Part shown: one piece after another, positions 2,267-22,531 of the stretch
How the letters are laid out: each line of letters opens with the position of its first letter
Numbering within the stretch: the first letter of the stretch is position 1
Assembly (NCBI GenBank): GCA_945913285.1
Contig: CAMEDD010000011.1
Location: forward strand, 1 to 32,000
Direction of reading: 5' to 3'
From: Candidatus Sulfopaludibacter sp. SbA3
GTDB lineage: Bacteria; Pseudomonadota; Alphaproteobacteria; Caulobacterales; Hyphomonadaceae
DNA length: 32,000 nt
The notes under the pieces: model-generated
What the model was told of the DNA's origin: nothing
The model's database searches: none
The model's input: the letters and a program-made list of their open reading frames with translations, nothing else
Program-made: the position numbers and the translations under genes

Positions 2267-2308
2267 AAATTCCCCGACAGCCGCCGCTTTCCTGTCAAAT
2301 TCCCCCGA
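2267..2308. repeat. direct repeat AAATTCCCC(C)GA, two copies 30 bp apart
   Basis: AAATTCCCCGA is at 2267-2277 and AAATTCCCCCGA at 2297-2308, in the non-coding stretch ~160-200 bp upstream of sciP. Confidence 0.4.
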
Positions 2309-2376
2309 TTGTCCCGCCCCGGAACAGGTTTCCAAACATCGTCCTAACGTTCGCCCCGAAACTCATCTTTCGAGTC

Positions 2377-2388
2377 AAGGCCGGGCTT
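2377..2388 (+). repeat. 12-nt motif AAGGCCGGGCTT, copy 1 (upstream of sciP)
   Basis: Exact 12-mer shared with 2769-2780. Context is GTCAAGGCCGGGCTTAAACC, ~79 bp before the sciP ATG at 2467. Confidence 0.4.
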
Positions 2389-2466
2389 AAACCGCCTCGT
2401 GTAGGCTGCCTTTCATACCCGGCAGAAGCGGGGTGAAACGCATAGGACCGTGAAGTAGTTTTGATT

Positions 2467-2739
2467 ATGAACATGCAGAATGCACGCCCGATGAGCGTCA
2501 AGGGCCCGGATGGCCAGACACTCACACTCGCCGATTTGCCCTCGCCCGGCATCTCCCGCTGGGTCACCCGCCGCAAGGCCGAAGTGGTCGCCGCTGTCCA
2601 GGGCGGTCTCCTCACCTGCCAGGATGCCTGCGAAAGCTACAATCTGACCGAAGAAGAATTCGAGGGCTGGGAGCGTCTGTACGCCCGCCACGGCTCGAAA
2701 GGCCTTCGTACGACCCGCCTTCAGCAGTACCGCCGTTAA
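2467..2739 (+). CDS. sciP: SciP, small CtrA-inhibitory transcription factor (DUF1153 family)
   Basis: …GPDGQTLTLADLPSPGISRWVTRRKAEVVAAVQGGLLTCQDACESYNLTEEEFEGWERLYARHGSKGLRTTRLQQYRR matches the SciP/DUF1153 signature as I remember it (RWVxRRKAEVVAAVxGG…GLRTTRxQQYR). The start is ambiguous among TTG 2461 and ATG 2467, 2473 or 2491. Confidence 0.85.
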   Translation: MNMQNARPMSVKGPDGQTLTLADLPSPGISRWVTRRKAEVVAAVQGGLLTCQDACESYNLTEEEFEGWERLYARHGSKGLRTTRLQQYRR

Positions 2740-2755
2740 CACGGTTTCAGGTTTG

Positions 2756-2770
2756 TTAACCCTGCCGTAA
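2756..2770 (+). promoter_or_regulatory. CtrA-box-like element TTAA-N7-GTAA upstream of the fliF-like operon
   Basis: TTAACCCTGCCGTAA has one mismatch to TTAA-N7-TTAA. A second GTTAAC at 2735-2740 overlaps the sciP stop. A -10-like GCTTCTAAC lies at 2777-2785, which would place the box over -35. Confidence 0.3.
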
Positions 2771-2780
2771 GGCCGGGCTT
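2769..2780 (+). repeat. 12-nt motif AAGGCCGGGCTT, copy 2 (upstream of the fliF-like gene)
   Basis: Exact copy of 2377-2388. Context is GTAAGGCCGGGCTTCTAAC, 51 bp before the ATG at 2831. Confidence 0.4.
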
Positions 2781-2830
2781 CTAACTTTCCGGGAATCTGC
2801 CGGCCCTCTGGCCGGTTCCGGAGGGATGGA

Positions 2831-3505
2831 ATGGCGTTTGGCAGCAGCACTCGGGCGGGAACGCCGGGATCGACGCGCTCGCTGGCGATGCTTATCTGCG
2901 CGCTGGCGCTGGGCCTTCTGGTCTGGCGCGGCGCGGCCGTGCTGACCGGCCCGGCCGCGCCTGCGCCGTCCAGCGCTGCAGAGGCCGCACTGGCCGATAT
3001 CGTCGCGCCCATTGCCGGGCCCGGCCTCTCCCGCCTCAGCGTGACCTTCAATGCCGGAGGCGGACGCACTATCCTGATTGTCTTGGATAAACGCGCTTCG
3101 GCGCAAATCCCGGAACTGGAACGCATCGCGGCCCTCGCCGCCGGGATCATACCCGAACAGGGCGACCGCCTGGTCATCGAAACCGTTACCTTTGCGGCCG
3201 GTATTCCCGGCCGCCCCACCCCGGAGCAGTGGGCCGAACTGATCGGCCTCGCCGTGCTTGCCCTTGCAGGGGGCGGCTTGATCGCCGTGTCCGGTACGCC
3301 TTTGACCGTTCAATCACCGGCCGCTCAATTAATCTCTGCGCCGGCTGCCGCGCCTGAACGCACGCCTGCGCAAACGCCTCGCGCGCCGCGTCCCGTGCCC
3401 GTCGCCCAGCCGACCGAAGCAGCCGCCGAGATTGCCCGGCGTGATCCGGCGCGCGCCGCCGCGGTCGTGCGCGGCTGGATGAACACGCGGGACGAGATCG
3501 CATGA
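2831..3505 (+). CDS. fliF: FliF-like M-ring protein, drastically shortened (224 aa)
   Basis: It sits immediately 5' of fliG with an ATGA overlap, and a GGAGGG RBS lies 5 nt before the ATG. Order of elements:
- TM1: LAMLICALALGLLVW.
- One RBM-like alpha-beta-beta-alpha-beta stretch: AALADIVAPIAGPGLSRLSVTF…RTILIVLDKRASAQIPELERIAALAAGIIPEQGDRLVIETVTF.
- TM2: LIGLAVLALAGGGLIAV.
- A Pro/Ala linker.
- A C-terminal DPARAAAVVRGWM helix resembling the FliG-binding tail of FliF.
Canonical FliF is far longer. Confidence 0.55.
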   Translation: MAFGSSTRAGTPGSTRSLAMLICALALGLLVWRGAAVLTGPAAPAPSSAAEAALADIVAPIAGPGLSRLSVTFNAGGGRTILIVLDKRASAQIPELERIAALAAGIIPEQGDRLVIETVTFAAGIPGRPTPEQWAELIGLAVLALAGGGLIAVSGTPLTVQSPAAQLISAPAAAPERTPAQTPRAPRPVPVAQPTEAAAEIARRDPARAAAVVRGWMNTRDEIA

Positions 3506-4416
3506 GCGCGTTGTCCAAAGCCGCGCCCCTGATGGCGCCCGGTCTTGCCCGTTCGGCCCGGCTGATGCGGGCGCTTGGCCCGGACGCCGCCGGGATCTGG
3601 AGCGAGCTCGACCCGCAGGAGGCCGAAGCGCTCAGCGCCGCGATGGAACGGCTCGGAGACGACCCCGCCAGCGAAGCGGATGCCTTGCGCCGTTTCACAG
3701 AGGCCCAACGCGCCCGCACCGGCATGGGCGTATGGGCTGAACTGTCGGCGCTCGATACCTCCGTCCTCGATGCCATCACCCGTCATGAACGCGCGCAAGT
3801 CGTGGCGCTGATCCTCTCGCGGCTGACAGGCGATGCTTCGGCGCGGCTGCTGCGCGCCTTGCCGTCATCCCTCGCCATCGAAGCAATGCAGCGGCTTCTG
3901 CACCTCGGCGAAGTTCACCCTGCCGCCATGGCCGGGCTCGAACAGCACCTGAAGGGCCGGGTCACGTCGATGGTCCGTGAGGGCTCGCAGGCCGGGATTG
4001 AAGGCATTGCGCTCATCTTCGACCGCCTCGATCCGCGCGCCGGAACCCTGTTCCTCGCTGCGCTCGAGAATGCCGAGCCGGGCGCCGGCGAAAAAGTCCG
4101 TTCCCTGATGTTCACCTTCGATGACCTGGGCACGCTGGATGCGGGCGGCATGCAAACGCTGCTGGCGACCGCTGATCGCGCAACGCTGGTCATCGCGCTC
4201 AAGGGCGCCAAGGAGACGACGTCTGCCGCCTTCTTCGCGAACGTCACGCAGCGCGCAGGCGACCTGCTGCGCGAAGAGATCGCGGCGCTCGGCCCCGTCC
4301 GCCGCAGCGAAGTGGACGCCGCCCGGACAGAACTCGTTGGCCTCGCGCGCCAGCTGATCAGCCGGGGCGAAATCCATGCCGGCAAGGATACCGATGAGGA
4401 CGAACTCGTCGAATGA
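3502..4416 (+). CDS. fliG: flagellar motor switch protein FliG
   Basis: 304 aa. Motifs present are MFTFDDL, VIALKGA, and the C-terminal torque helix QRAGDLLREEIAALGPVRRSEVDAARTELVGLARQLISRGEI, with conserved Arg and acidic-pair positions. The EHPQ-equivalent is degenerate (HERAQ). Confidence 0.9.
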   Translation: MSALSKAAPLMAPGLARSARLMRALGPDAAGIWSELDPQEAEALSAAMERLGDDPASEADALRRFTEAQRARTGMGVWAELSALDTSVLDAITRHERAQVVALILSRLTGDASARLLRALPSSLAIEAMQRLLHLGEVHPAAMAGLEQHLKGRVTSMVREGSQAGIEGIALIFDRLDPRAGTLFLAALENAEPGAGEKVRSLMFTFDDLGTLDAGGMQTLLATADRATLVIALKGAKETTSAAFFANVTQRAGDLLREEIAALGPVRRSEVDAARTELVGLARQLISRGEIHAGKDTDEDELVE

Positions 4417-4823
4417 CCGCGCGCGCCATCAAGACTGTCGCTCCTTTTGAGTTCCGGGCGGACTTCGGTCCGCAGCCCGAAGAAGCCGCGCCAGATGAAC
4501 CCGCGCGCGTCAGCTTCACAGGCGACGAAGTGGCCGGGCTGATTGCGCAGGTGAGGGCAGAAACGCTAGCGGAAGTTGCCCGGCGTCAGGCCGCGTCGGA
4601 GGCCGAACGACTGGCTGTACTGGCACGCGATCTGAGGGCTGCGCTCGGCGAGATCGTTCAGGTTATGAGCCATATCGAGGCTGTCCAGTTCGATCCCGTC
4701 ACCGAAGCGCGGCTGCGCGCCTCTGTTGAAACTGCCGCTGGCCGCATCATCCATGGACAGGCCGACCTGTTCGAGACACTCGCAGACACGTCTGCCTCAA
4801 AGCCGAAGGAAGGCACGACATGA
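4413..4823 (+). CDS. FliH/FlbE-like flagellar assembly protein (short, position-based call)
   Basis: 136 aa between fliG and fliN, with ATGA overlaps on both sides. It has an N-terminal FEFRADF motif like alphaproteobacterial FliH N-termini, then a coiled-coil-like Ala/Glu/Arg region. It occupies the flbE position of the Caulobacter fliF operon. Confidence 0.45.
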   Translation: MTARAIKTVAPFEFRADFGPQPEEAAPDEPARVSFTGDEVAGLIAQVRAETLAEVARRQAASEAERLAVLARDLRAALGEIVQVMSHIEAVQFDPVTEARLRASVETAAGRIIHGQADLFETLADTSASKPKEGTT

Positions 4824-5086
4824 CCGACAACGGTAACCCTGCTTTCCGCCGTATGCTGATGGATGTGCCTGTCCGTGTCGAAGTCGTGCTCGGCGACGTG
4901 CGCGTCTCGATGGATGAACTCCAGGCCCTGTCGCCGGGCGAAGTGCTGACCATGGAAAAGCAGACCGGCGAGCCCGTGGACATCTACGTCTCCGGCCGCC
5001 TGATCGCCCGCGGCAAGCTGGTGGTCGCCGACGGCGAACTGGGCGTCACGCTCACCGAAATCGTCGATGACCGCGCCGTGGCCTGA
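4820..5086 (+). CDS. fliN: flagellar motor switch protein FliN (SpoA domain)
   Basis: VPVRVEVVLGDVRVSMDELQALSPGEVLTMEKQTGEPVDIYVSGRLIARGKLVVADGELGVTLTEIV matches the FliN/SpoA consensus. Confidence 0.85.
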   Translation: MTDNGNPAFRRMLMDVPVRVEVVLGDVRVSMDELQALSPGEVLTMEKQTGEPVDIYVSGRLIARGKLVVADGELGVTLTEIVDDRAVA

Positions 5087-5145
5087 CGCGCCCTCGAAAT
5101 TAGTTACATCTGGAACTGATTTGCCGTTGGGCCTATAAGGCGCCC

Positions 5146-6018
5146 ATGGACACTGCCTTTGCCAGGAACCGGTATCACGACGCGCCCCGCGCAGCGGACT
5201 ATACGATTGACCAGGCCTGGGACACCTACAGCGCCGCCGAACATGACCGCTGGGACCGTCTCTTCCGCCGGCAGAGCGAGATCACCAAAGGCCGCGCCTG
5301 CGCCGCCGCGCTGGAGGCGATGGGCCGCCTTGAGCTGTCGCCCTCGGGCGTGCCGCACATGGGGCGCCTGTCGGGCCGGCTGGAAGCGATGACGGGCTGG
5401 CGGCTCGTGCCGGTGGCGGAGCTTGTGCCCGACGAGATCTTCTTCAATCACCTTGCCAATCGCCGCTTCCCGGCGGGCGCGTTCATCCGGCCGGAGGCGG
5501 AGTTCGATTACCTTCAGGAACCGGACATCTTCCATGACATCTTCGGGCATGTGCCGATGCTCGCCAATCCGGTCTTCGCCGACTTCATGCAGGCCTACGG
5601 GCAGGGCGGCCAGCGGGCCATGCGGCTCGGCCAGCTGCACAACCTTGCGCGGCTTTACTGGTACACCGTCGAGTTTGGACTCATTCAGGAGGCGGACGGT
5701 CTGCGCGTCTATGGCGCGGGCATCCTGTCGAGCCCGGACGAGACCGTCTTTGCCTTGGAAGACGCTAGCCCCAACCGGATCGGGTTTGATCTAAAGCGCC
5801 TGATGCGTACGAAATACATCATCGACGACTTCCAGCAGACCTATTTCGTCATCGACAGTTTCGAAGCGCTGCTGGAGGCCTGCTACCAGGATTTCGGCAA
5901 TGTCTATTCCGAGGTGAAGGACGCCGCGGACATTGAAGCGCAGGACCTGCTGGCGGATGACCGCGTGATCACGCGCGGCAGCCATGCCTATTTCGACGCG
6001 GGCGGCCGCAAGGCCTGA
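5146..6018 (+). CDS. phhA: phenylalanine 4-hydroxylase
   Basis: 290 aa. The aromatic amino-acid hydroxylase core is present: PDIFHDIFGHVPMLANPVFADFMQAYG (2-His iron site) and ARLYWYTVEFGLI. Confidence 0.9.
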   Translation: MDTAFARNRYHDAPRAADYTIDQAWDTYSAAEHDRWDRLFRRQSEITKGRACAAALEAMGRLELSPSGVPHMGRLSGRLEAMTGWRLVPVAELVPDEIFFNHLANRRFPAGAFIRPEAEFDYLQEPDIFHDIFGHVPMLANPVFADFMQAYGQGGQRAMRLGQLHNLARLYWYTVEFGLIQEADGLRVYGAGILSSPDETVFALEDASPNRIGFDLKRLMRTKYIIDDFQQTYFVIDSFEALLEACYQDFGNVYSEVKDAADIEAQDLLADDRVITRGSHAYFDAGGRKA

Positions 6019-11108: not shown

Positions 11109-11367
11109 GTTGCATCGCCTCCCAGGGGAAAACACGCTTCTTTTGGCGCGTTTTGTTGTTGCATGACGGTAACGTCACCTCAGCGGCCTGCAAGCCTTAT
11201 CGTCAGGTCAGCGTCTGGCTTCAGAAATTTCACCCGGCAGGCGTGTTGAAACGGATGTCCGATGCCTTAGGGTTTTGTTTGCGAAGCCTCAGGCAGGAGA
11301 TGCTGCGTCGTGGATCTCGCCCGCAAGATGACCGCCCCCGGATCACTTTGCCTGACGAGACTTGCCT

Positions 11368-11837
11368 ATGCCTGCCTCAATCACACTCTCAGCCCTCAGC
11401 TTTGCCCTGCCGACGGCCGGGTTCTCTTTTCAGACCTCGGTTTCAGTTTCAATCAGGAACGCACCGGACGGGTCGGTCGCAACGGCGCCGGCAAACCGAA
11501 GTTTCTGAAACTGGTCGCCGGTCAACACGCGCCATCCGCGGGGCGCGTCAGCCTCACCTGCACGCTTGGCACGCTCGGCCAGCTGAAGGCCGTGCCGGAC
11601 GACATGACCTTTGCCGACCTGTTCGGCGTGCGCCGCGCGCCGTCGCTCCTGCGCAAGGCCGAGGTCGGCGAGGCGTCAAAGGCAGACTTCGGCGACCTGG
11701 ATTGGACGCTAGAGGCGGTGGAGGCTGGCCTCAAGGCCGATCATGGCGCCATCCTCGTGGTCAGCCATGATGAAGCCTTCCTGGCGCGCATTGGAATCAC
11801 GCGCCGGCTGGAACTGAGATCAAGCCGCTTGACCTGA
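11368..11837 (+). pseudogene. decayed ABC-F-type (duplicated-ATPase) ABC protein: frameshift, damaged Walker A, large internal deletion
   Basis: The ATG at 11368 opens MPASITLSALSFALP in frame 1. The family sequence then continues in frame 3 (DGRVLFSDLGFSFNQERTGRVGRNGAGKPKFLKLVAG), which implies a 1-nt indel near 11412. Walker A reads GKP instead of GKS/T. After DWTLEA the ORF jumps directly to a C-terminal-type end, ILVVSHDEAFLARIGITRRLEL. That leaves about 170 codons where this family normally has roughly 500 or more. Confidence 0.6.
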
Positions 11838-12004
11838 AGCTGACGACGCCCGGCGGACGGTTTGCGTCATCGCAGCCACCGCGTTCGATGTTACTTATTA
11901 CGCAAGCGCAGGGCTTCTCTTCTCGGTCGGACGGCACGTCATGGGACGCAGCGTCAAGCCGCGTTCGCCGCCGCTCTCAAGCGCTTCTAGTCCTTCAGGA
12001 CGCG

Positions 12005-12586
12005 TCAGCAATTATAGCCCTGATAGCTGCAGGGGATCTCTATCTTGACGAAGGGGTGTTCCATTTTGGCCGCAAAGCGTGCGCTGTGCGGTGCCGCGAA
12101 GGTTGTCGGATCCTTCTCCTGAAACCATGCCTCGGCGCCGGCGGCGGCGACAACGTCTTAGGGGCCGGGCGTAAAGTCATCCTCAATATGGACGATCACG
12201 AAATTCTCCGCAGTGTAGCGCGCGAGAACAAGCGCGCCTTGGCTGACATCGCCGCGCTTGTCTTATGACACAAGGTAATAGCGCCCTTTGGCGCCTTTCA
12301 TGGGCGCATCGAAGGCGCGGCTCCAGCCGCACCATTCAGCGCCGATGATGACCAGCACTGCCTTGCCTTCAGCCCCGGCCCGCGTTGTCGCAGCGCGGTA
12401 AAGGTCCAACGGGTTCGAGCACTGATCATAGGCTGCCGCGCGGCCGTCGCGGCAGTTGGGGACAAGCGACAGGGGCTAGGAGACGATTGTCGAAGCCGCC
12501 GCCAGAATGTCTACCTGCGCAACAGCGGGCGCGCCGGAGCAGGCCGCCGCAAACAGCAAGGCCGCTGCACCCGCGGCGAATTTCAC
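12005..12586 (-). pseudogene. thioredoxin-fold lipoprotein gene with three in-frame stop codons
   Basis: One minus-strand frame reads VKFAAGAAALLFAAACSG… (lipobox) …KAVLVIIGAEWCGWS…, a CxxC-type motif with the second Cys now Ser. It is interrupted by TAG (12476-12478), TAA (12263-12265) and TAA (12158-12160), and ends at TGA (12005-12007). No frameshift is needed. Its GTG start overlaps the map stop (GTGA). Confidence 0.6.
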
Positions 12587-13407
12587 CCGCGCTGGACCTT
12601 GAACGGCTCGTGCCAGCCCTTGGGCGAGGCGGAGAAGATCTCGTAGCCGGTTTCGGTCACGCCCACCGAATGCTCGAACTGCGCAGAGAGCTGCCGGTCG
12701 CGGGTCACGGCGGTCCAGCCATCGGGGAGGATGGCGGCGTCCCGGCGGCCGAGGTTCAGCATGGGCTCGATGGTGAAGAACATGCCGGCCTTGAGCTGCG
12801 GGCCTGTTCCGTAGGCGGAGGAGTGCACAACGTTCGGCTCGTCATGGAACAGGCGGCCGAGGCCGTGTCCGCAGAACTCGTCGACCACCGAAACCCGGTT
12901 CAATCGCGCGACTTCGCTGATCGCGCCGCCAATGTCGCCGAATCGGGCGCCGGGTTTTATCTGCGCAATGCCCGCCATCATGGCTTCATAGGTCACCTCC
13001 ATCAGGCGCTCGGCTTTGCGCTTCACGTCGCCGACGCCGTACATGCGGCTATGGTCGCCGTGCCAGCCGTCGATGATCAGCGTCACGTCGATGTTCGCGA
13101 TGTCGCCGTCCTTGAGCGCTTTCGGGCCGGGGATGCCGTGGCAGATGACGTGGTTGACCGAGATGCAGGAAGCGTGGCGATAGCCCCGGTAACCGATCGT
13201 CGCGGAGGTCGCGCCGTGATCATGGACGAACTGGTAAACCAGACGGTCCAGATGCTCGGTCGTCACGCCTGGTTTTACCTCCGCCACCAGCATGTCGAGG
13301 CATTCCGCCACGAGGCGGCCGGCGCGGCGCATGCCGGCAAAGCCCTCGGCGTCATGGATTCGGATTTCGCCCGTACGCATAGGCAGGAGGAGGTTTGTTT
13401 CGGTCAT
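12583..13407 (-). CDS. map: methionine aminopeptidase, type I
   Basis: MTETNLL…SCISVNHVICHGIPG…GDIANIDVTLIIDGWHGDHSRMY…GHGLGRLFHDEP…FTIEPML…EHSV carries the MetAP D/D/H/E/E metal-site motifs. The 143 upstream codons of the track ORF (to 13836) look non-coding, so the start is taken at 13407. Confidence 0.9.
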   Translation of the reverse strand: MTETNLLLPMRTGEIRIHDAEGFAGMRRAGRLVAECLDMLVAEVKPGVTTEHLDRLVYQFVHDHGATSATIGYRGYRHASCISVNHVICHGIPGPKALKDGDIANIDVTLIIDGWHGDHSRMYGVGDVKRKAERLMEVTYEAMMAGIAQIKPGARFGDIGGAISEVARLNRVSVVDEFCGHGLGRLFHDEPNVVHSSAYGTGPQLKAGMFFTIEPMLNLGRRDAAILPDGWTAVTRDRQLSAQFEHSVGVTETGYEIFSASPKGWHEPFKVQRG

Positions 13408-13549
13408 GATCTTGTTCCGGAAGGTGTGGTCTAAACATGACAGTTCCACACTGGTTTTTCCACCCCTCCTCAGGTGAAGTCTCTGGCCCCGCCTTGCCAC
13501 GGCCGGGAATCTGGCAGATGCACACGGGCTTTCAACTCTGGAGTTTCGA

Positions 13550-14878
13550 ATGATTGAACCGTTGGCACGCCTGTTGCGCCCGGCCGGGATCGCTGCGGCG
13601 CTGGTCCTGTCTTCGGCCTGCGCGGCCCATCCCAAGCCATCCGAGGCGGCGGCGCCTGCGCCTATCGAGGCTCCGCTTGCGCCAGCGCGGGTCTCCGACG
13701 AGGGGGTCAAGGCGCTTGAGGCGCGGATGACGCAGTTCGTCGCGGACGGCCAGGTCAAGGGCATTGCCACGCGCCTGATCGTCGATGGCAAGATTGTCAG
13801 CGACGTGACCGCCGGAATTCGCCGCGCGTCGGACAACAGCCCGGTCGCAGAAGATACGATTTTCCGAATCTATTCGATGTCCAAGCCGGTAACCGGCGTT
13901 GCCTTGATGATGCTGTATGAACAGGGCGCTTTCACGCTGGATGATCCGATTACCAAATTCGTGCCGGAGTTTGCAAGCCTCCGCGTGATGACGGGTGTGA
14001 CCCCCGAAGGCGCGCCAATTCTGACAGATCCCGAACACATCCCCACGATGCGCGAAGTGATGAGCCATACGGCGGGCTTCGCGTACGGCCTGTTCGGTGA
14101 CGATCCGGCCAACAGAGCTTTCCGCGAGCAGAAGATCCTGTCCTCGCCGGATCTTGATAAGTTCATCGGCAAGGTCGCCGAAGTGCCGCTCCTGTTCCAG
14201 CCCGGCAAGGCCTGGTCCTACAGCGCTTCAGTCGATGTTCAGGGCTATGTCGTTCAGAAAATCTCCGGCCAGTCCTTCGGGTCTTTTCTGGACACAAGGC
14301 TCTTTGGCCCGCTCGGCATGAAAGATACCGGGTTCTACGTTCCGGAGGCAGATGTTGACCGCTTCAGCGATGTTTTCGGATATACGGACAAGGCGCCCGG
14401 ACTCGTGCCTTTCTCCGTGCCTCAAGTCGCATTCCGGAAGGAGACGATCGGCATGGAGTCGGGGGGCGGCGGGCTCGTCTCCACCATGGATGACTATACC
14501 CGCTTCGCGCAGATGCTTTTGAATGAAGGCGAGTTAAACGACGTCCGCGTCTTAAAGCCTGAAACCGTTCGTCTCATGCGCACCAACATGTTGCCGCCCG
14601 GCGCGGCCCTCTTCTCGGACGGCTCCGGCGCCGCGCTCAACACCGCCGGTCTCGCTTTTGGTTTGAACCTCGGCCTGATTGAAGACCCGGCAGCCTCGGG
14701 GCGTCCGCAAGGCGCGGGGTCGTATTTCTGGGGCGGCGCGGCCGGCACCTGGTTCTGGGTCGATCCCCAGAACGACGTTATCTTCATCGGTATGATCCAG
14801 CGCTTTGCCACCGGCGGCCCGAACGTCGACTTCTCCGGAGAGTCGGGCAAGCTCGTGTACGGAGCGCTTCAGAAATGA
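13550..14878 (+). CDS. secreted serine hydrolase, beta-lactamase/transpeptidase-like fold
   Basis: It has a signal/lipoprotein-like N-terminus (LVLSSACAAHP) and an SxxK motif (YSMSKPVTG). GGAG lies 6 nt before the ATG. Confidence 0.85.
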   Translation: MIEPLARLLRPAGIAAALVLSSACAAHPKPSEAAAPAPIEAPLAPARVSDEGVKALEARMTQFVADGQVKGIATRLIVDGKIVSDVTAGIRRASDNSPVAEDTIFRIYSMSKPVTGVALMMLYEQGAFTLDDPITKFVPEFASLRVMTGVTPEGAPILTDPEHIPTMREVMSHTAGFAYGLFGDDPANRAFREQKILSSPDLDKFIGKVAEVPLLFQPGKAWSYSASVDVQGYVVQKISGQSFGSFLDTRLFGPLGMKDTGFYVPEADVDRFSDVFGYTDKAPGLVPFSVPQVAFRKETIGMESGGGGLVSTMDDYTRFAQMLLNEGELNDVRVLKPETVRLMRTNMLPPGAALFSDGSGAALNTAGLAFGLNLGLIEDPAASGRPQGAGSYFWGGAAGTWFWVDPQNDVIFIGMIQRFATGGPNVDFSGESGKLVYGALQK

Positions 14879-15636
14879 CCTCGCCAAGGCCCACCGCCGC
14901 CGTCCTTCTGATCGGAGATGAACTCCTCTCCGGCCGGACCCGGGACATCAACCTTCAGCAGATCGCGCAGTATCTGGAGCCACTCGGCATTCCGGTGATG
15001 GAGTGCCGGACCGTGCCGGATATCCAGGAAGAGATCGTGGCAGCGGTGAACGCGCTCCGGGCAAAATACACCTATGTTTTCACGACCGGTGGCATCGGCC
15101 CAACGCATGATGACATCACCGCTGACGCCATTGCCGCGGCGTTCGGTGTCGGCATTTCGGAGCATCCGGACGCGCTGCGTGAGATGGCGGCCCGCTACGC
15201 CGCCATGAACACCGAGTTCACGGCGCCGCGCCGGCGGATGGCGCGCGTGCCGGATGGGGCGAGCCTTGTCGCCAACCCTGTCTCCGGCGCGCCCGGCTTC
15301 CAGACGGGCAACGTGTTCACCCTGGCCGGTGTGCCGCAGATTGCGCGCGCGATGCTCGAAGATATCGGGCCGCGACTGCAGACCGGCGCGGTCGTCCACA
15401 AGGTGACGGTCAAAGGCAAGGGCCTGCGCGAGGGTGATCTTGCGATCCGCCTCGGCGAGATCGACGCGGCGGCCCCGGCGGTCTCGGTCGGCTCCTACCC
15501 CTGGTATCTCGGGCCGGATAACAACGGCGTGTCGCTGGTGGCGCGGTCCGTCGACGCGGCGGCGCTTGAAGCGGTGCGCCTGCAACTTGTCGCACTTTCC
15601 GAATCCCTTGGCATCAAACCGGAGATCGAAGCATGA
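14875..15636 (+). CDS. CinA-like / MoCF-biosynthesis (MoaB-Mog fold) domain protein
   Basis: AAVLLIGDELLSGRTRDINLQQIA…YVFTTGGIGPTHDDITADAIAAAFG is the competence-damage CinA N-terminal-type molybdopterin-binding fold. There are ATGA overlaps with both neighbours. Confidence 0.75.
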   Translation: MTSPRPTAAVLLIGDELLSGRTRDINLQQIAQYLEPLGIPVMECRTVPDIQEEIVAAVNALRAKYTYVFTTGGIGPTHDDITADAIAAAFGVGISEHPDALREMAARYAAMNTEFTAPRRRMARVPDGASLVANPVSGAPGFQTGNVFTLAGVPQIARAMLEDIGPRLQTGAVVHKVTVKGKGLREGDLAIRLGEIDAAAPAVSVGSYPWYLGPDNNGVSLVARSVDAAALEAVRLQLVALSESLGIKPEIEA

Positions 15637-16121
15637 GTTTTATCACCCGCACGCCGGTCCTGTGGGCCCTCTTTGTGCTGACGATCGCTCTGACGGTCGC
15701 CTTTGGGGCGGCTGCGCCCGCCGTGGGCGGACAATTCCTCGATATGGTATCGGCCCCTGAAGATACCCGCGCCGTGTTCGACGCGATGACGCCCAGCGAG
15801 CGGTCGATGCACTTCTGGCTCACCCTCTTCCTCGATACGGCCTATCCATTTTCGTTCGGCTTGTTCTTTGCCGGCATGGCCTGGCGCTTTTTCGGCAAGT
15901 GGGGCCGGTTTGCTGCGATCCCCGGCTTTGCCGTGCTGATCGTCGATCTCACGGAGAACATGCTGCAGGCGATCACTTTGTCGGGCGCAGCCTACGTGCT
16001 CGAGCCGAAAGCCTGGGTCTCTCCGCTCAAGATGAACCTGTTCTACGCCGCCGCGCTGATTGCTCTGGTCGCGGCCGGCATTGCCCTCTACCGCCTGATC
16101 ACCAAGAAAAAGCAATCATAG
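15633..16121 (+). CDS. hypothetical membrane protein
   Basis: 162 aa with about 4 predicted TM helices. GGAG lies upstream and an ATGA overlaps the preceding gene. No family was recognised. Confidence 0.55.
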   Translation: MSFITRTPVLWALFVLTIALTVAFGAAAPAVGGQFLDMVSAPEDTRAVFDAMTPSERSMHFWLTLFLDTAYPFSFGLFFAGMAWRFFGKWGRFAAIPGFAVLIVDLTENMLQAITLSGAAYVLEPKAWVSPLKMNLFYAAALIALVAAGIALYRLITKKKQS

Positions 16122-16138
16122 TTTCCGGAGGAATTGCC

Positions 16139-16921
16139 ATGTCCGAATCCATCGTTCTCGTCGAGCGCCACGGCGCGGTCGCCCTCGTCACCCTGAACCG
16201 TCCGGAGGCGCTGAACGCGTTGAACCGGGCCCTGCGCGCCGAGATCGTGCGCGTGTTCACGCAGCTGAAGGATGATACGAGCATCCGGGCCGTTGTCCTG
16301 ACCGGCGCGGGCCGCGCCTTCACAGCGGGCATCGACCTGAAAGAAGCTGGCCAGACCGGATTTGCTCTGGGAGCGGACGAAGACTCCAAAGCCATAAACA
16401 TGGCCGCCGCGCTGGAAGCCTATCCCTGGCCGATCATCGGCGCGATCAACGGTTTTGCTATCACTGGCGGTTTTGAACTCGCCCTGATGTGCGATGTGCT
16501 GCTCGCCTCGGAGCATGCAAAATTTGCCGACACGCACGCCCGCGTCGGTATCGTGCCAGGCTGGGGCCTGTCGCAGAAGCTCTCGCGCCTGATCGGTATC
16601 AGCCGCGCCAAGGAACTCTCCTTCACCGGCAACTTTATTGATGCGCACACCTCCGAAAAATGGGGCCTCGTGAACCGCGTCTATCCGGCGGCGGACCTCG
16701 TGCCCGCGGCGCTGCAGCTCGCGACCGAAATGACGGGCACGCAGCCTGTGCTCCTCAAGAAGTACAAGGCACTGATCGACGACGGCTTCGCCACCGAGTT
16801 CGGCAAGGCGATGAAGGAAGAAGTGAAACGCTCCATCGAGCATTCGGCTTCCGTCTCGGCGGAGTCGGTCGAGGAAGCGCGCAAGCAGGTGACGGCGCGG
16901 GGCCGGGACCAGCAGGGTTAA
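16139..16921 (+). CDS. enoyl-CoA hydratase/isomerase (crotonase family)
   Basis: MSESIVLVERHGAVALVTLNRPEALNAL…VVLTGAGRAFTAGIDLKE…AINGFAITGGFELALMCD. A GGAGG RBS precedes the ATG at 16139. The upstream part of the track ORF (from 15899) overlaps the previous gene and is not coding. Confidence 0.9.
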   Translation: MSESIVLVERHGAVALVTLNRPEALNALNRALRAEIVRVFTQLKDDTSIRAVVLTGAGRAFTAGIDLKEAGQTGFALGADEDSKAINMAAALEAYPWPIIGAINGFAITGGFELALMCDVLLASEHAKFADTHARVGIVPGWGLSQKLSRLIGISRAKELSFTGNFIDAHTSEKWGLVNRVYPAADLVPAALQLATEMTGTQPVLLKKYKALIDDGFATEFGKAMKEEVKRSIEHSASVSAESVEEARKQVTARGRDQQG

Positions 16922-16927
16922 GCCTGC

Positions 16928-17443
16928 TCAGTCCGCAAACTCGAACGCATCCATCCTCAAAACACTCAACGTCTGCGACGGGTGAAGCGAGGCCGCGTGC
17001 AACCTCCCCGCGCCGAGCGCCGCGAACAGAGGCATGAGATGCTCCTGCGTGGGATGGTTGCGGGGTGCCCGCGGCGCGGGCCTGCGATAATTCAGCAGGT
17101 CATCGACCCGGCCGTCAGCCAACGCCGCATCACCGGGCGCCGGGTAGCGCTGGTCGAACAGGATATGCGGGAACCCGCCGAAGTCGTGGATGGTCTCGTT
17201 CATGGCCACCGCATTGACGGCCGGAATGTTCGTTTTCGTGTACGCGGAGACACCCAGGACCGCCTTGGGGCAGGGCAGGAAGTTGCCGAGCGTTACGGGG
17301 AAATCCCGCGCGCCGGCACCTCGTCGCACAGCCGTGTCGGCGAGCCATGCCAAACAAGGATGGGCGCCGTCGCAGAGGCGATACTCCAGCAGACTGTTCA
17401 GCCGCCCATACAAGAAGCTGCAGCGCGCAATGTCAGCTTTCAT
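16928..17443 (-). pseudogene. YgiD/LigB-type extradiol (4,5-DOPA) dioxygenase remnant with internal deletion
   Basis: It retains the IHDFGGFPHILFDQRYPAPGDAALA core and the C-terminal HPTQEHLMPLFAALGAG. However, the GHGSP-type and SAHW-type metal-ligand motifs read LYGRLNS and SAYT. The central part of the fold is missing, leaving 171 aa from the ATG at 17443. The track ORF's extra N-terminus (to 17701) overlaps the thiolase start. Confidence 0.55.
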
Positions 17444-17546
17444 GCCCCGGCTAACAATTATGCCGTTACGGCATGGCGTGCCGGGTGTTGCGCGAGGCGC
17501 CTGACACGGCCTATCAACACGCCAGCAAAGACCCTGGGAGCCTGCC

Positions 17547-18758
17547 ATGCGTGATGTCGTGATCTGTGAACCGGTGCGGACGGCCGTTGGCGGCTTTGGC
17601 GGCTCGTTCAAGGAAGTCCACGCGCATGCGCTTGGCGCGGCGGTGGTTGCCGGCCTGATGGAGCGCACCGGCCTGCCGCGGGACAAGGTCGATGATGTCA
17701 TCTTCGCGCAGTGCTATCCGTCGATGGACGCGCCGGCGCTGGGCCGCGTGGTTGCCCTCGATGCCGGCCTTCCGGTCGAAGTGACCGGCATGCAGATCGA
17801 CCGCCGCTGCGGCTCCGGCCTTCAGGCGATCATCAACGCGACGATGCAGGTGGCCACCGGCGCGATGGACTGCGTGATCGCCGGCGGCGCCGAGTCCATG
17901 AGCAACGCGCCGTTCTACTCGACTAACTGGCGCTGGGGCCTCGGGCAGGGGAACATGACCGTCAATGATGGTCTTATCACGGGCCGCCTCACGGCGGGCG
18001 GCAAGAACTTCCCCGTTCCCGGCGGCATGCTGGAGACGGCGGAGAACCTGCGCCGCGATTACCAGATCACCCGCGCGGCGCAGGACGAGTTCGCCGCCGC
18101 CTCGCACGCCAAGGCGGTCGCTGCGCAGGCCAGCGGCGTGTTTGCCGAGGAGATTATTCCGGTCACCGTGGCGGGCCGCAAGGGTGATACGGTCGTCACC
18201 AAGGACGAACATCCGCGGGCAGACTCCACAGCCGAAGTGCTCGGCAAGCTGAAGCCAATCCGCCTGAAGCAGGACCCCGAAGCGACCGTCACCGCCGGCA
18301 ACGCGAGCGGCCAGAATGACGGCGCCTCCGCCTGCCTCGTGATGACGCGCGAGATGGCTGAACAATATGGCCTGAAGCCGCTTGCCCGGCTCGTTTCCTG
18401 GGCAGCTGGCGGCGTCGGCCCCGCGGTTATGGGGATCGGGCCTGTTCCGTCTACGGACAAAGCACTGAAGCGCGCAGGCCTCTCGATCAAGGACATTGAT
18501 CTCATCGAACTCAATGAAGCCTTCGCCGCGCAGGTGCTCGCCTGCACGAAGGCGATGGGCTTCACAGAAGACGACTATGCGCGCCTCAACGTGCATGGCT
18601 CCGGCATCTCGCTCGGCCACCCCGTGGGCGCCACCGGCGGGCGAATTCTCGCCACGCTCCTGCGCGAGATGGACCGCCGCGAAGCGCGCTACGGCCTCGA
18701 AACCATGTGCATTGGCGGCGGTCAGGGCCTTGCCGCCGTGTTCGAACGGGTTAGCTGA
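17547..18758 (+). CDS. acetyl-CoA C-acyl/acetyltransferase (thiolase)
   Basis: 403 aa: MRDVVICEPVRTAVGGFGG…, QIDRRCGSGLQAI (active-site Cys), NEAFAAQVLAC, NVHGSGISLGHPVGATG, CIGGGQGLAAVFERV. GGGAG lies 6 nt before the ATG. Confidence 0.9.
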   Translation: MRDVVICEPVRTAVGGFGGSFKEVHAHALGAAVVAGLMERTGLPRDKVDDVIFAQCYPSMDAPALGRVVALDAGLPVEVTGMQIDRRCGSGLQAIINATMQVATGAMDCVIAGGAESMSNAPFYSTNWRWGLGQGNMTVNDGLITGRLTAGGKNFPVPGGMLETAENLRRDYQITRAAQDEFAAASHAKAVAAQASGVFAEEIIPVTVAGRKGDTVVTKDEHPRADSTAEVLGKLKPIRLKQDPEATVTAGNASGQNDGASACLVMTREMAEQYGLKPLARLVSWAAGGVGPAVMGIGPVPSTDKALKRAGLSIKDIDLIELNEAFAAQVLACTKAMGFTEDDYARLNVHGSGISLGHPVGATGGRILATLLREMDRREARYGLETMCIGGGQGLAAVFERVS

Positions 18759-18779
18759 CAATTGTCAAAAGTCTGACAA
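18756..18779. promoter_or_regulatory. triple TGACAA half-site element (TGACAATTGTCA-N6-TGACAA)
   Basis: A perfect 12-bp palindrome, TGACAATTGTCA (18756-18767), begins on the thiolase stop codon. A third TGACAA lies at 18774-18779. This is the start of the AT-richer cspA upstream region. It could be an operator or a weak hairpin. Confidence 0.3.
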
Positions 18780-18964
18780 TACCTAAGGTAACGTAGAAAT
18801 AACTTGCTATTGCGCAGGGCTGGGCGCATATGCCGCTCATCGACGTTGGCCGGACAATCAGGCGCAGCTCCTTGAAAGGGAGCGGTTTCAGACCCTTCAC
18901 CAAATAATCGATATGCAAGGGCTGGCGCATTGTCAGCCCACAAACTGGTATGAGACTTACTTAT

Positions 18965-19174
18965 ATGACGAACGGTACTGTGAAATTCTTCAATAGCCAA
19001 AAAGGCTTCGGCTTCATTGCGCCAGCAAACGGTGGGAACGACGTGTTCGTTCACGTCACCGCTCTTGAGCGCTCGGGCATCGCAACCCTGAACGAAGGCC
19101 AGAAAGTCAATTTTGACACGGCCAAAGATCAGCGCTCCGGCAAGGTTGCTGTGAGCACGATCGAACTGGCATAG
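18965..19174 (+). CDS. cspA: cold-shock protein (CspA family)
   Basis: MTNGTVKFFNSQKGFGFIAPANGGNDVFVHVTAL… contains the RNP1 (KGFGFI) and RNP2 (VFVHV) motifs. A long ~200-nt upstream leader is typical of csp genes. The track ORF starts 5 codons earlier, at 18950. Confidence 0.9.
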   Translation: MTNGTVKFFNSQKGFGFIAPANGGNDVFVHVTALERSGIATLNEGQKVNFDTAKDQRSGKVAVSTIELA

Positions 19175-19228
19175 TCCAGGCTAGCCGCCAGCGCGCGCCT
19201 AGCGCCGCTGATCCGGCAAACTAAAGAG

Positions 19229-19258
19229 GCGCGTTCCGGCAACGGGGCGCGCTTTTTT
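19229..19258 (+). terminator. rho-independent terminator of cspA
   Basis: A 10-bp stem pairs GCGCGUUCCG with CGGGGCGCGC (two G-U pairs). It has a GCAA tetraloop (19239-19242) and is followed by TTTTTT (19253-19258). Confidence 0.75.
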
Positions 19259-19287
19259 GATTCCGGGCGCTGGAGTTTTGTTTGGTC

Positions 19288-19331
19288 GCGATGTCGTCCG
19301 CTCAACCGGTACCTACTTGAGCGGACATCGC
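19288..19331. other. long imperfect inverted repeat between the convergent cspA and DASS genes
   Basis: GCGATGTC(GT)CCGCTCAA … TTGAGCGGGACATCGC gives 8+8 bp with a 2-nt bulge. The 11-nt loop contains GGTACC. It lies 8 nt past the DASS stop. Neither strand has a U-tract. Confidence 0.4.
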
Positions 19332-19338
19332 TCTAACG

Positions 19339-20802
19339 TCAAAGCCCGAAATACATGGCAATAATCGCGATGCACGTGAGGTTCAGGGCAAGCCCCGCCC
19401 GGGCCATGTCGCGCACCGTCACTTTGCGCGTGGCGTAGACGACGGCATTCGGGCCCGTTGCGATCGGCAGCATGAAACCGCAGGACGCCGCCACGCAGCA
19501 GGGGATGACCAGGGCGCGGATATCGAGTCCTGTCGCGTCCGAGAGCGCGCCGAGCACTGGCAGGAACGTGGTCATCGCGGCGACGTTGGACATCACTTCC
19601 GACAGGAACACCACCATCGTGACGATGATCAAGATAAGAACGATCGGCGGCAGGGTCGCAAGGCCGGCGAGGTTATTGCCAAGCCACCCGGCCAGCCCTG
19701 AGGCCTGGATCGCCGCAGCCATCGAAAGGCCGCCGCCGAACAGCAGGACGACATCCCACGGCACATTCTTCCCGTCTTCCCAGTCCAGGAGGGCGCGTCC
19801 GCGTCCCACCGCCCGTTCGGACGTATCGCCGTGCGGCACAAGGAACATCGCCACGGCGCCGAGCATCGCGATGCCCATGTCGGTCAGGCCGGCGAGGGCC
19901 GGCGCCTTGATCAGCTGCTCGCGCAGGATCCACGCGGCGGCCACGCAGGCGAACACGGTGGCCACGCGCGCCTCGGCGGATGTCATGCGCCCGAGCGCGC
20001 CATGTTGCGCGCGAATGGACGCGCTGGCCGCCTTGGCCTGTTCGGGCGTGGATTTCAGCCCCCAGGTCAGGATCAGACAGGCGGCGGGCAGCATCAGCGC
20101 GATCATCGGTAAACCGGTCGCCATCCACTCCCGGAACGTGATTTCAATCCCGGCATTCTCTTTAAGCCATCCGATGGCGATCAGGTTCGTCGGTGTGCCC
20201 ACCGGCGTGCCGAGGCCGCCAATCGAGGCGGCATAACAAACGCCGAGCAGCAGCGCGACCGCGAGCCTTGGACCGCCGCCGGCCGCCACCGCGACCGACA
20301 GGATGATCGGCGTCATCATGAGCGCCGTCGCCGTGTTGGAAATCCACATCGACAAGAGCGCCGTTGCCAGCATCACGCCCGCTGTGAGAATTTTCACGCG
20401 CGCGCCTGAAACACGCAGCACGTTAAGCGCAATGCGACGGTGAAGGTTCCATTTCTCTATGGCGAGCGCCACCAGGAACCCGCCGAGGAGAAGCATCACC
20501 ACAGGGTCTGCATACGGCGCGGCAACGTCCTTGAGTTCCATGATGCCAAACAGCGGCAAAATGGCGAGCGGCAGAAGCGACGTCACCGCCATCGGCAGCG
20601 CCTCGGTGGCCCACCAGATCGCCATCAGCAGAAACAGGCCGGCGACCATCATGGCGCTGGGCTCAAGTCCCCCGGGCGGCGGAAGGAAGGCGACGATCAG
20701 CGCCAGTACGGGGCCCGCGAACAGGCCGAACTTCGCGGCGAAGCCGGTGTCGCTGTCCGGAATACCTTCACGCGGCGGGGAGGTCTCACCCGTCTCGGCC
20801 AT
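19339..20802 (-). CDS. DASS/SLC13-family anion:sodium symporter (dicarboxylate/sulfate type)
   Basis: 487 aa and polytopic, with the SNTATALMMTPI and SNVAAMTTFLPV hairpin-loop motifs characteristic of DASS transporters. Confidence 0.85.
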   Translation of the reverse strand: MAETGETSPPREGIPDSDTGFAAKFGLFAGPVLALIVAFLPPPGGLEPSAMMVAGLFLLMAIWWATEALPMAVTSLLPLAILPLFGIMELKDVAAPYADPVVMLLLGGFLVALAIEKWNLHRRIALNVLRVSGARVKILTAGVMLATALLSMWISNTATALMMTPIILSVAVAAGGGPRLAVALLLGVCYAASIGGLGTPVGTPTNLIAIGWLKENAGIEITFREWMATGLPMIALMLPAACLILTWGLKSTPEQAKAASASIRAQHGALGRMTSAEARVATVFACVAAAWILREQLIKAPALAGLTDMGIAMLGAVAMFLVPHGDTSERAVGRGRALLDWEDGKNVPWDVVLLFGGGLSMAAAIQASGLAGWLGNNLAGLATLPPIVLILIIVTMVVFLSEVMSNVAAMTTFLPVLGALSDATGLDIRALVIPCCVAASCGFMLPIATGPNAVVYATRKVTVRDMARAGLALNLTCIAIIAMYFGL

Positions 20803-20937
20803 GGATTTTTTCCCCGCTTGCCGCCTTCTGGCGTGTTTGTGACGGCGAGGCTTAGCCTGCTTTCCCTGTGCTTGGAACCGTCTCCAGAACGCGCCAGCTT
20901 GCCATCCGCGCGACTGCGCCCTAACCCTGAATCCAGC

Positions 20938-21024
20938 GCGGGCGTGGCGAAATTGGTATACGCAAGGGACTTAAAATCCCTCGGCCGCAAGGCCTTGCCG
21001 GTTCAAGCCCGGCCGCCCGCACCA
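20938..21024 (+). tRNA. tRNA-Leu (anticodon UAA)
   Basis: Manual cloverleaf:
- Acceptor stem GCGGGCG/CGCCCGC.
- D-arm GCG…GG…CGC.
- Anticodon stem AGGGA/TCCCT with loop CTTAAAA.
- Long variable arm GGCC-GCAA-GGCC.
- T-arm GCCGG-TTCAAGC-CCGGC.
- Discriminator A and an encoded CCA. Confidence 0.9.
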
Positions 21025-21048
21025 TCCAAGCCGGTCCGCGCAGCCGAT

Positions 21049-21071
21049 CACTCGGTCCTGGGGGCCGAGTG
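21049..21071 (+). other. stem-loop 25 nt downstream of tRNA-Leu
   Basis: CACTCGG (21049-21055) pairs with CCGAGTG (21065-21071), and the stem is extendable with G-U/G-C pairs. No T-tract follows. It may be a tRNA 3' processing or termination structure. Confidence 0.3.
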
Positions 21072-21125
21072 AAGGCGCCGGATGAAGCAAGGACACTCCC
21101 CCCTCGCCGCTTAGATTTCGCAGGC

Positions 21126-22103
21126 TCAGCCTGTGATCGACACCCACGCCTTGCTGCGCCGCGTTTCGCGGGCCCTGGCAGCAACGCCAAGAGTGCCGGC
21201 TCCCGGGCTCCAGCGTACGCGGTCCGCTTCCGGTATGCGCGTCCAGCTGTCCCCGATCCGGCTCCAGAGCGCGTCCGATGCCCGGAAATAGGCTGACATC
21301 ACGATGACATCTTCTGCCCGCGCCATCGGCGTCTGTGAGATCGCGTGCGCCTGCACGACCAGCGCCGCGAGATCTTCCAACACATCCTGCGGCCATCCAT
21401 GGGCGCGCCCGAGGCGCAACAAGGCGATCTGAGTAGCCGCCGTATTGTAAACATCTTCGATCAGCCGGAACGGCTTGATATAGGTCTCATAGGCATCTGC
21501 TGGCAGAATCTCTCCGGCGCCGATCGCGATGTCCTCAAGGATCAGATCGGCAATCGGCATATGGTCCTGATACGCTCCGTAGGCTGATGTATCGAGCGTG
21601 AGGCCACCGCGCCCCGCAGGCAGCCGCACCATCTGCAGCTGATTGCGCCCGTCGAGCTGCCCAATAGAAGCAGCAACATAGAGCACGTCGGCCAGCGGCG
21701 ACATCGATCCCCAGCGCTTCACGCCGTTCAGCCGAAACCCGGCGCCGTCCGGCGTCAGCGCGGCTAGAATATGCGCCGGTCGCGGGCCCTTGTCCTCGCT
21801 GACACAGAAGGCCGTCACGGCGTCGTCCGGCGTATCCGGGAAGAGGCGCCGGATCGCGGCCTGATGCCCCGCCGCGCCCGCCGCGCGCCGGTTGTCCGCG
21901 CGCGATGCGACCCGCACGAGACGCTCGAACGCGGACGGGCTCGCCGGCGTGCCGGGTCCGGAAGCCTTTAGGAAAGCGCGCAGGTCCCGGCTGTCGGCCG
22001 CAGCTTCTGGTTCAAACAGGATCGAGAGGAGTTCGGCGGGCGTCATCGCACGCGTGATGCCGCCCGCGCGGCGCCGTGTCAAATGCTGCGGCGAACGGCT
22101 CAC
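21126..22103 (-). CDS. acyl-CoA dehydrogenase-like protein (short, divergent)
   Basis: The middle-domain-like segment GFRLNGVKRWGSMSPLADVLYV and an all-helical C-terminal half resemble ACAD-family proteins. The flavin and catalytic residues are not confidently identifiable. The start is either the GTG at 22103, overlapping the pirin stop, or the ATG at 22046. Confidence 0.45.
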   Translation of the reverse strand: MSRSPQHLTRRRAGGITRAMTPAELLSILFEPEAAADSRDLRAFLKASGPGTPASPSAFERLVRVASRADNRRAAGAAGHQAAIRRLFPDTPDDAVTAFCVSEDKGPRPAHILAALTPDGAGFRLNGVKRWGSMSPLADVLYVAASIGQLDGRNQLQMVRLPAGRGGLTLDTSAYGAYQDHMPIADLILEDIAIGAGEILPADAYETYIKPFRLIEDVYNTAATQIALLRLGRAHGWPQDVLEDLAALVVQAHAISQTPMARAEDVIVMSAYFRASDALWSRIGDSWTRIPEADRVRWSPGAGTLGVAARARETRRSKAWVSITG

Positions 22104-22531
22104 CCCGCCGGCAGGGGCGTGAATTCCTGATCGTCCCCGTCCGGCAGCTTCATCTGCCCCGCCGCCCAGGCCGGTATGCCGTGCATGCGCGCGCCATGCA
22201 TTCGCGCATGTTCGAGGCGCTCGGAATGCGTAATGCCCTTGCCGGCTGTGATCCAGTTGACGGCGCCCGGCTTGATCTCCTGTTTGGAGCCGAGACTGTC
22301 GCGGTGCGTCATCGCGCCGGAATAAAGATAGGTCACGGTGGACAGGCCAATGTGCGGATGCGGCCGAACATCGAGCTCGCGCAGAATGCCGGCCGCAAAG
22401 TCCACAGGCCCCATCTGGTCGAAGAAGATGAACGGGCCCATCATGCGCCGCTTCGCAAAGGGCAGCACACGGCCCACTTCAAATCCGCCGCCAAGGCCGC
22501 GCGTGCGCTTGTCGGTGATGAGGTCGATCAT
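22100..22531 (-). CDS. pirin-family protein reduced to the N-terminal cupin (apparent in-frame internal deletion)
   Basis: The N-terminal cupin has an intact metal site (RPHPHIGLSTVTYLYSGAMTHRDSLG, AGKGITHSER). After MHGI(P)AW the ORF runs straight into …LPDGDDQEFTPLPAG. That resembles the extreme C-terminus (…PGD..EFIPLP) of ~290-aa bicupin pirins. The ORF is only 143 aa. Confidence 0.55.
   Translation of the reverse strand: MIDLITDKRTRGLGGGFEVGRVLPFAKRRMMGPFIFFDQMGPVDFAAGILRELDVRPHPHIGLSTVTYLYSGAMTHRDSLGSKQEIKPGAVNWITAGKGITHSERLEHARMHGARMHGIPAWAAGQMKLPDGDDQEFTPLPAG

Follow-up and report, generated by a model that had tools for sequence, protein, structure and literature searches.

Probable deletion remnants of three dispensable genes in a freshwater Hyphomonas-like bacterium that is shedding genes

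Deletional bias and reductive genome evolution in bacteria were reportedly set out by Mira, Ochman and Moran in 2001. A similar pattern is found in G000, a metagenome-assembled genome (MAG) in which deletions take away inactivated genes step by step and more sequence is missing from syntenic blocks than in its relatives. The stretch analyzed here (the window) covers positions 1 to 32,000 of contig C11 of this genome, and the subject is a set of three genes within it, encoding an ABC-F ATPase, a YgiD-type extradiol dioxygenase and a pirin, that are reduced to remnants. Microhomology-flanked deletions with a bias toward multiples of three nucleotides (3n) have been described in bacterial pseudogenes, and 3n-spaced microhomology was raised as an explanation for them (Danneels, Pinto-Carbo and Carlier 2018; PMC6054270). 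The window resembles that system in its microhomologies of up to 11–12 nucleotides, its 3n deletion sizes and its gene-losing genome. In contrast, the published events are small indels (mostly ≤15 nucleotides) in obligate leaf-nodule symbionts, whereas the deletions described here span 327–1125 bp and come from a freshwater bacterium of free-living type, for which the 3n spacing of 9–11-mers was also measured directly. This is gene decay of a documented kind in a lineage shedding genes. Very probably, the three genes, which encoded an accessory ABC-F paralogue, a dioxygenase of the YgiD type and one of the two pirins, were dispensable, and deletions that form part of an ongoing loss have left them as dead or dying remnants.

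G000 comprises 3.02 Mb in 98 contigs with a completeness of 93%, and the G+C content of the window is about 64%. Proteins of its relatives carry the NCBI label 'Hyphomonas sp.'. The DNA of the window also turns up in metagenomes of lakes, freshwater and sediments that at least eight further studies produced, with 0.72–0.94 of the sampled 31-mers shared, and is 99.4–99.9% identical to independent contigs. The nearest other species compared, G017 and G004, share approximately 87–90% nucleotide identity with G000, while the more distant G008 and G002 share approximately 76–85% and G015 approximately 73–80%. Base-by-base analysis of joins covered the ABC-F, YgiD and pirin loci.

The initial annotation, made from the sequence alone, described an ABC-F gene with both ends kept, the middle lost, the start in another frame and a Walker A motif reading GKP, and alignment to the G017 orthologue bears this out. 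The remnant occupies positions 11362–11837 on the + strand. An intact two-domain gene encoding 533–535 amino acids lies between a major facilitator superfamily (MFS) transporter gene and map in G017 (L009:2928-4535), G004 and G008. The window sequence aligns to the 535-residue G017 protein at residues 1–139 and 491–533 only, and the 1125 bp (375 codons) missing between these segments encoded the linker and most of both ABC domains. The join, at which DWTLEA meets VEAGL, lies at 11707–11717 (+ strand) and holds the single copy left of an 11-bp direct repeat. In G008, the 11-mer CGCTGGAGGCG stands at either end of the missing segment, while the G017 copy has one mismatch. The remnant gives a single ABC_tran match of 22 bits, under the Pfam cut-off of 25, and thus does not show two domains; the G017 protein contains two ABC_tran domains and scores 344 bits against the NCBIfam model for ribosomal-protection-like ABC-F proteins.

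Smaller lesions are also present in the ABC-F remnant. A one-nucleotide deletion at 11411–11412 (+ strand), where a base is missing after 11411, puts the MPASITLS start into another frame, the Walker A motif reads GAGKP (GKPK at 11490–11501) rather than GxxGxGK[ST], and the stop codon is displaced two codons upstream. The frameshift, out-of-frame start and mutated Walker A motif mark the remnant as dead. The corresponding stub in L044, a 97.8%-identical relative, is without the frameshift of the window and carries its own Walker A lesion, GAGQT, indicating that these small lesions are younger than the split between the strains and that erosion is continuing. The L044 remnant has also lost a further ~272 bp net, as the 308 bp at window positions 11643–11950 are swapped for 36 bp of other sequence. 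Consequently, the original join is gone in L044. It is plausible that the large deletion was the first hit to this gene. Homologous recombination of one ABC domain with the other was considered as the cause and rejected, as the breakpoints fall at non-homologous positions of the domains.

The YgiD/LigB-type remnant lies on the − strand at 16928 to ~17500. G004, G008 and G015 carry an intact gene for a 256-residue LigB-family protein between enoyl-CoA hydratase and thiolase genes, and the G004 orthologue (L012:5366-6136) scores 147 bits against Pfam LigB and 205 bits against NF007914. The initial reading of a lost middle and mutated His motifs was correct. In nucleotide alignment with these three genomes, 327 bp (109 codons) are missing at a join near 17125 (17121–17130, − strand), with a microhomology of ~5–6 bp inside an imperfect repeat matching at 11 of 13 positions. 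The remnant has no Pfam match and reaches 66.6 bits against NF007914 (cut-off 233), such that no full LigB domain is recovered. Additional lesions include loss of the start codon and an insertion of two nucleotides at ~17299–17322. The loss of the real start and this insertion show that the 257-codon open reading frame (ORF) at 16928–17701 is an accident of frame. The conserved His metal ligands do not stand in one reading frame: the first (HGSP) can be read solely in the frame that precedes the +2 frameshift, Tyr has taken the place of the second (SAHWET changed to SAYTKT) and the region of the third is deleted. These lesions mark the remnant as dead. The gene is gone entirely from G017.

The pirin stub (22100–22531, − strand) is an open ORF of 143 codons and most likely a pseudogene. 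Its N-terminal cupin is intact (108 bits against Pfam Pirin) and runs in frame straight into the last 19 codons, as had been noted initially. The gene encodes a bicupin of 287–288 residues in all five relatives. Thus, 145 codons (435 bp) are missing at the join (22160–22169, − strand), where one copy of a 10-mer direct repeat matching at nine of ten positions remains. Pirin_C, which scores 84 bits in the G004 orthologue, is wholly absent. Compared with bicupin pirins (Pirin plus Pirin_C, named YhaK-type redox-sensitive bicupins by the Joint Genome Institute (JGI)), the stub has the same N-terminal cupin with its metal ligands intact, but it is without the C-terminal cupin and evolves without visible constraint.

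Comparison with sister genomes therefore yields one large gap per orthologue alignment at all three loci, as was anticipated, and flanking repeats of 11, ~5–6 and 9/10 bp at the junctions. The syntenic intact orthologues come from sister species (~88–90% nucleotide identity) and from outgroups (~75–80%), and the outgroups carry the long form in all three cases, which places the deletions on the G000 branch. Each remnant combines a syntenic intact orthologue, a flanking repeat of which one copy is left and relaxed constraint afterwards, as expected of pseudogenes formed by microhomology deletion.

The possibility that sequence was collapsed at these loci during assembly or binning had been raised from the outset, and it is a natural concern for a MAG in 98 contigs. 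However, contigs from three separate data sets (X2/X3, X6 and X10) cross all three joins with 0 gaps. These are Logan contigs built from runs of other studies, and X2 and X3 are apparently one data set filed twice. The ABC-F join is bridged by X10 record 1, X2 record 9 and X6 record 25, the YgiD join by X10 record 2, X2 record 10 and X6 record 25, and the pirin join by X10 record 8, X2 record 15 and X6 record 31. Together with contigs that cross the join of a dprA stub described below, the bridging sequences are 99.4–99.9% identical to G000. Moreover, the European Nucleotide Archive (ENA) contigs L085 (99.4% identity) and L090 (99.7%) follow the window collinearly across the remnants of YgiD and pirin, and the repeats at the joins, at 6–11 bp, are far below any assembler word. 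An artefact is therefore vanishingly improbable.

It is also extremely improbable that the short forms represent naturally short subfamilies rather than deletion products. Full-length ABC-F, YgiD and pirin genes stand at the same sites in the sisters and outgroups examined, with the exception of G017, which has lost YgiD, and the short forms are limited to one species cluster. A naturally short form is, however, exactly what is found for a fourth gene, the FliF-like gene at 2831–3505 (+ strand, 224 residues), which the initial annotation had assigned the same topology as the three remnants. Across the region 2300–5700, G017, G004, G008 and G015 are collinear with the window and do not differ from it in length, and the gene is collinear and encodes 217–228 residues in every relative examined (217–224 in G008 and G015). 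A total of 87 homologues was found, nearly all of 208–238 residues, some of which are named FliF/YscJ by JGI. The gene was consequently ruled out as a fourth deletion remnant on the basis of its collinearity and its conserved length of ~220 residues across the genus; it is an old, conserved short paralogue that lies outside the deletion series and is unrelated to the deletion process.

Canonical FliF forms the MS ring and is ~520 residues long in this genus, in which it is present elsewhere in 15 of 18 genomes (e.g., G017:C75). The FliF-like gene shares with it the gene order upstream of fliG, being followed by fliG-, fliH/flbE- and fliN-like genes, but it is ~220 residues long and has no Pfam or NCBIfam match, including to the ring-building domain PF01514 (YscJ_FliF). 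Pairwise BLASTP against the true FliF of the genus gives a weak similarity over 32 residues (E = 0.09) that leaves the C-terminal FliG-binding segment unaligned. On the G000 branch, the adjacent FliG shows purifying selection (12 synonymous changes versus 2 nonsynonymous), and the cluster of short FliF-like, FliG and FliN-like genes (2831–5086) is kept under purifying selection.

The preservation of frame at the three deletion joins also requires consideration, as the lengths of 1125, 327 and 435 bp are all multiples of three. The spacing of identical k-mer pairs 60–2000 bp apart within one gene was determined in 1,858 long G000 ORFs rich in G+C at third codon positions (GC3), and the share of pairs spaced 3n rises from 57% for k = 6 to 72% for k = 9, 78% for k = 10 and 86% for k = 11. 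Since repeats within genes are mostly 3n apart, repeat-mediated deletions should mostly be in frame, and three such events out of three are unremarkable. Selection on the products is unnecessary to explain the kept frames.

These observations suggest a route in which a dispensable gene would have its middle removed by a single deletion, independent of RecA, between short direct repeats, through replication slippage (slipped mispairing) or microhomology-mediated alternative end joining. Ku was not found in G000, making canonical end joining unlikely. Expansion of insertion sequences or other repeats was rejected as the driver, as the two repeats of the window have just 2–4 degenerate copies in G000. 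Neutral drift would then add frameshifts, lost starts, missense changes and small indels, with further deletions in sister strains, until the gene vanishes, as YgiD did in G017. The claim that large deletions act here rather than point decay is not upheld, as frameshifts, missense changes and the loss of a start codon are also found in the remnants, and a thioredoxin-like gene of the window was killed by three nonsense codons alone.

Of the three remnants, the pirin stub is still open. It had been proposed that the stub might be a neo-functional single-cupin protein under selection, and the stub does keep all four His/His/His/Glu metal ligands (the HPH and HSE motifs are conserved), a Pirin domain and an ORF that is open in all full-length alleles. 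Its pattern of substitution and its polymorphism density nevertheless match those of pseudogenes. Unique changes on the G000 branch number 9 nonsynonymous to 7 synonymous (9N:7S) in the stub versus 37N:139S in ten neighboring control genes (Fisher p = 0.004), and several of the changes in the stub fall at positions that are invariant across relatives. The best-supported polymorphisms in four runs give 4N:1S for the stub versus 6N:8S for intact neighboring genes. Divergence from strain L085 is 2.0/kb in intact genes and 9.9/kb in the thioredoxin-like and YgiD remnants (p = 2e-4), while the stub, outside its 5′ end, reaches 15/kb. At least eight allelic variants of the 143-residue form are found on more than 30 contigs, and the cluster of stub alleles comprises 9 variants, of which 7 are 143 residues long. 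No conserved 143-residue pirin family was found beyond this species cluster, the other short matches being contig-end fragments. In addition, a second, full-length pirin paralogue is kept at G000:C50, and a frame of 432 nucleotides easily stays open at 64% GC. Selection for a new mini-protein is accordingly very improbable, and from its substitutions and polymorphism the open stub is probably not functional.

The gene directly downstream of the stub offers another explanation for its persistence. This lineage-specific gene (21126–22103, − strand) is acyl-CoA-dehydrogenase-like, and no orthologue was found beside pirin in any relative. An enzymatically dead stub could be kept as an expression platform for it, supplying a promoter, a ribosome site and possibly coupled translation. 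In keeping with this idea, the stub retains its promoter-proximal end and stop, the longest form of the downstream ORF opens at a GTG that overlaps the stub TGA, and divergence of the downstream gene is ~3/kb, as in intact genes. However, public gene calls place the start 54 nucleotides past the stop, and repeat periodicity already predicts in-frame retention. Such a role is therefore unlikely, and simple decay of the pirin gene remains the preferred reading.

Several further differences were observed around the pirin stub. In L085, approximately the first 30 codons of the stub (window 22436–22507) are replaced by diverged homologous sequence with a 3-nucleotide indel, which suggests an imported allele or a contig-end effect. 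The gene between tRNA-Leu(TAA) and pirin is the acyl-CoA-dehydrogenase-like gene in the window and an abhydrolase-OsmC fusion in G017 and G008, and no gene occupies this site in G004. The tRNA-Leu(TAA) gene itself (20938–21024) is inverted relative to G017, G004 and G015. Near 21098–21103, the four compared runs are all one base shorter than the window.

The extent of gene loss beyond the window was assessed through two reciprocal censuses of syntenic blocks, in which genes were called by a crude GC3-based procedure and sought with tblastn. Of 149 G017 genes sought in G000 (~170–180 kb), 118 are intact, 11 are partial stubs, 3 are frameshifted and 17 are absent; the reverse search of 128 G000 genes in G017 found 114 intact, 2 partial (both artefacts), 3 frameshifted and 8 absent. 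The G017 contigs C108 (entirely) and C197 (mostly) have no G000 counterpart and are uninformative. When 415 G008 genes were sought in G000 (~456–527 kb), 16 were partial stubs and 89 absent, as compared with 5 partial (at least one of which reflects a remnant of G000 itself) and 39 absent among 349 G000 genes sought in G008 (Fisher p = 0.046 for partial stubs and p = 1e-4 for absent genes). A count of nonsense and frameshift genes in the G008 census was dropped, as it was dominated by spurious antisense ORFs (17 versus 18 by direction). Partial stubs are thus ~3 to more than 10-fold commoner in G000 than in relatives in the two reciprocal comparisons. Additionally, syntenic blocks are 8–13% shorter in G000 than in the partner genome, and crude coding density is 85.8% in G000 versus 89–91% in samples of the relatives. 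The 16 stubs of the G008 comparison (~456 kb) include the three of the window, which all lie within 11 kb, more than chance would give. The suggestion of deletional bias or streamlining is supported, as G000 has an excess of stubs and of gene losses when set against two relatives, although the four events on which it was based are reduced by the FliF-like gene, which is not one. Unlike Mycobacterium leprae or Sodalis, G000 carries a modest load, with ~4–7% of compared genes present as stubs. Relatives lose genes too, as shown by the absence of YgiD from G017 and of a beta-lactamase-fold gene from G017 and G004.

Most G000 stubs retain one end only. Both ends are kept in the three stubs of the window, in dprA and, in several pieces, in a polysaccharide-flippase gene. 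The dprA stub (locus L086, G000:C2:65750-66438) lies outside the window and lost its core out of frame: the N-terminal HHH (DprA_N) and winged-helix domains remain, while the DNA_processg_A core is gone. The same stub is present in independent Logan contigs, and no second dprA was found in the G000 assembly. The flagellum is similarly affected. No match to FliF (PF01514) or FlhA/FHIPEP (PF00771) was found anywhere in G000, and none of the ~18 ORFs of the G017 flagellar island (G017:C75, L083-L084) has a counterpart there; the G017 contig starts inside the island. These results are consistent with loss of the flagellum, although the completeness of the genome is only 93%.

Certain points speak against the interpretation of the three loci as dead or dying products of ongoing deletion. 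The metal ligands of the pirin stub are all retained and its frame is open in every allele observed, and the stub may be co-transcribed with the downstream gene and hence have a residual role. Other stubs of G000 are out of frame, such as dprA with a net 400 bp missing, or retain one end only. The censuses depend on a crude gene caller and incomplete MAGs, such that their nonsense and frameshift classes are unreliable, and the repair pathway behind the deletions is inferred.

Decay and variability are also seen at other sites of the window. A thioredoxin-like lipoprotein pseudogene (12005–12586, − strand) contains three in-frame stops and no large deletion, and shows raised polymorphism density; its intact orthologue in G017 encodes 215 residues with a Thioredoxin_7 domain. 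In this gene, a large deletion was clearly not the first hit. Positions 11851–11947 (no strand assigned) form a scar where G017 has radC and a GIY-YIG gene (98 bp versus 1223 bp in G017), and a tblastn search of all of G000 found no radC. Between map and the MFS gene, the DNA (11136–12600) is hypervariable within the species (compared with L090 and L044), even between strains that are 99.7% identical elsewhere. In one 99.7%-identical strain, map is followed straight away by a diverged copy of radC, with 75% identity to the sister species, in place of the thioredoxin-like pseudogene. The beta-lactamase-fold gene at 13550–14878 is intact in G000, G008, G015 and G002 and cleanly excised, with 93–97 bp left, in G017 and G004. 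A sequence of ~640 bp at 1605–2240 occurs in more than 10 copies in G017 and in G004 and as two to four degenerate pieces in G000; it is probably a small element, mobile or repetitive, which the MAG has lost or under-represents. Finally, a 65-bp insert relative to G017 at 19270–19334 is multi-copy in G017 and G004, has three more copies in G000 and resembles a repetitive extragenic palindrome (REP) or miniature inverted-repeat transposable element (MITE).

These findings have consequences for annotation, as the 175-, 257- and 143-codon ORFs are to be treated as pseudogenes or stubs and not as short ABC, hypothetical or pirin proteins. More generally, in-frame deletion remnants need not signal selection for mini-proteins in GC-rich genomes, and the idea of 3n-spaced repeats, published for small indels, is extended to kilobase deletions. 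A literature search returned nothing on genome reduction in freshwater Hyphomonas, and this lineage may serve as a case of ongoing loss of genes, including flagellar and competence-associated genes, outside obligate symbiosis. Tentatively, G000 could represent a nearly clonal freshwater Hyphomonas-like species (~99.4–99.9% identical across at least eight studies) at an early, visible stage of reduction, a reading that is possible but doubtful. If true, it would imply that the species recently went through a bottleneck or took up another lifestyle, for example living attached to a host or phototroph, and would provide a natural free-living-type system for measuring large, 3n-biased microhomology deletions.

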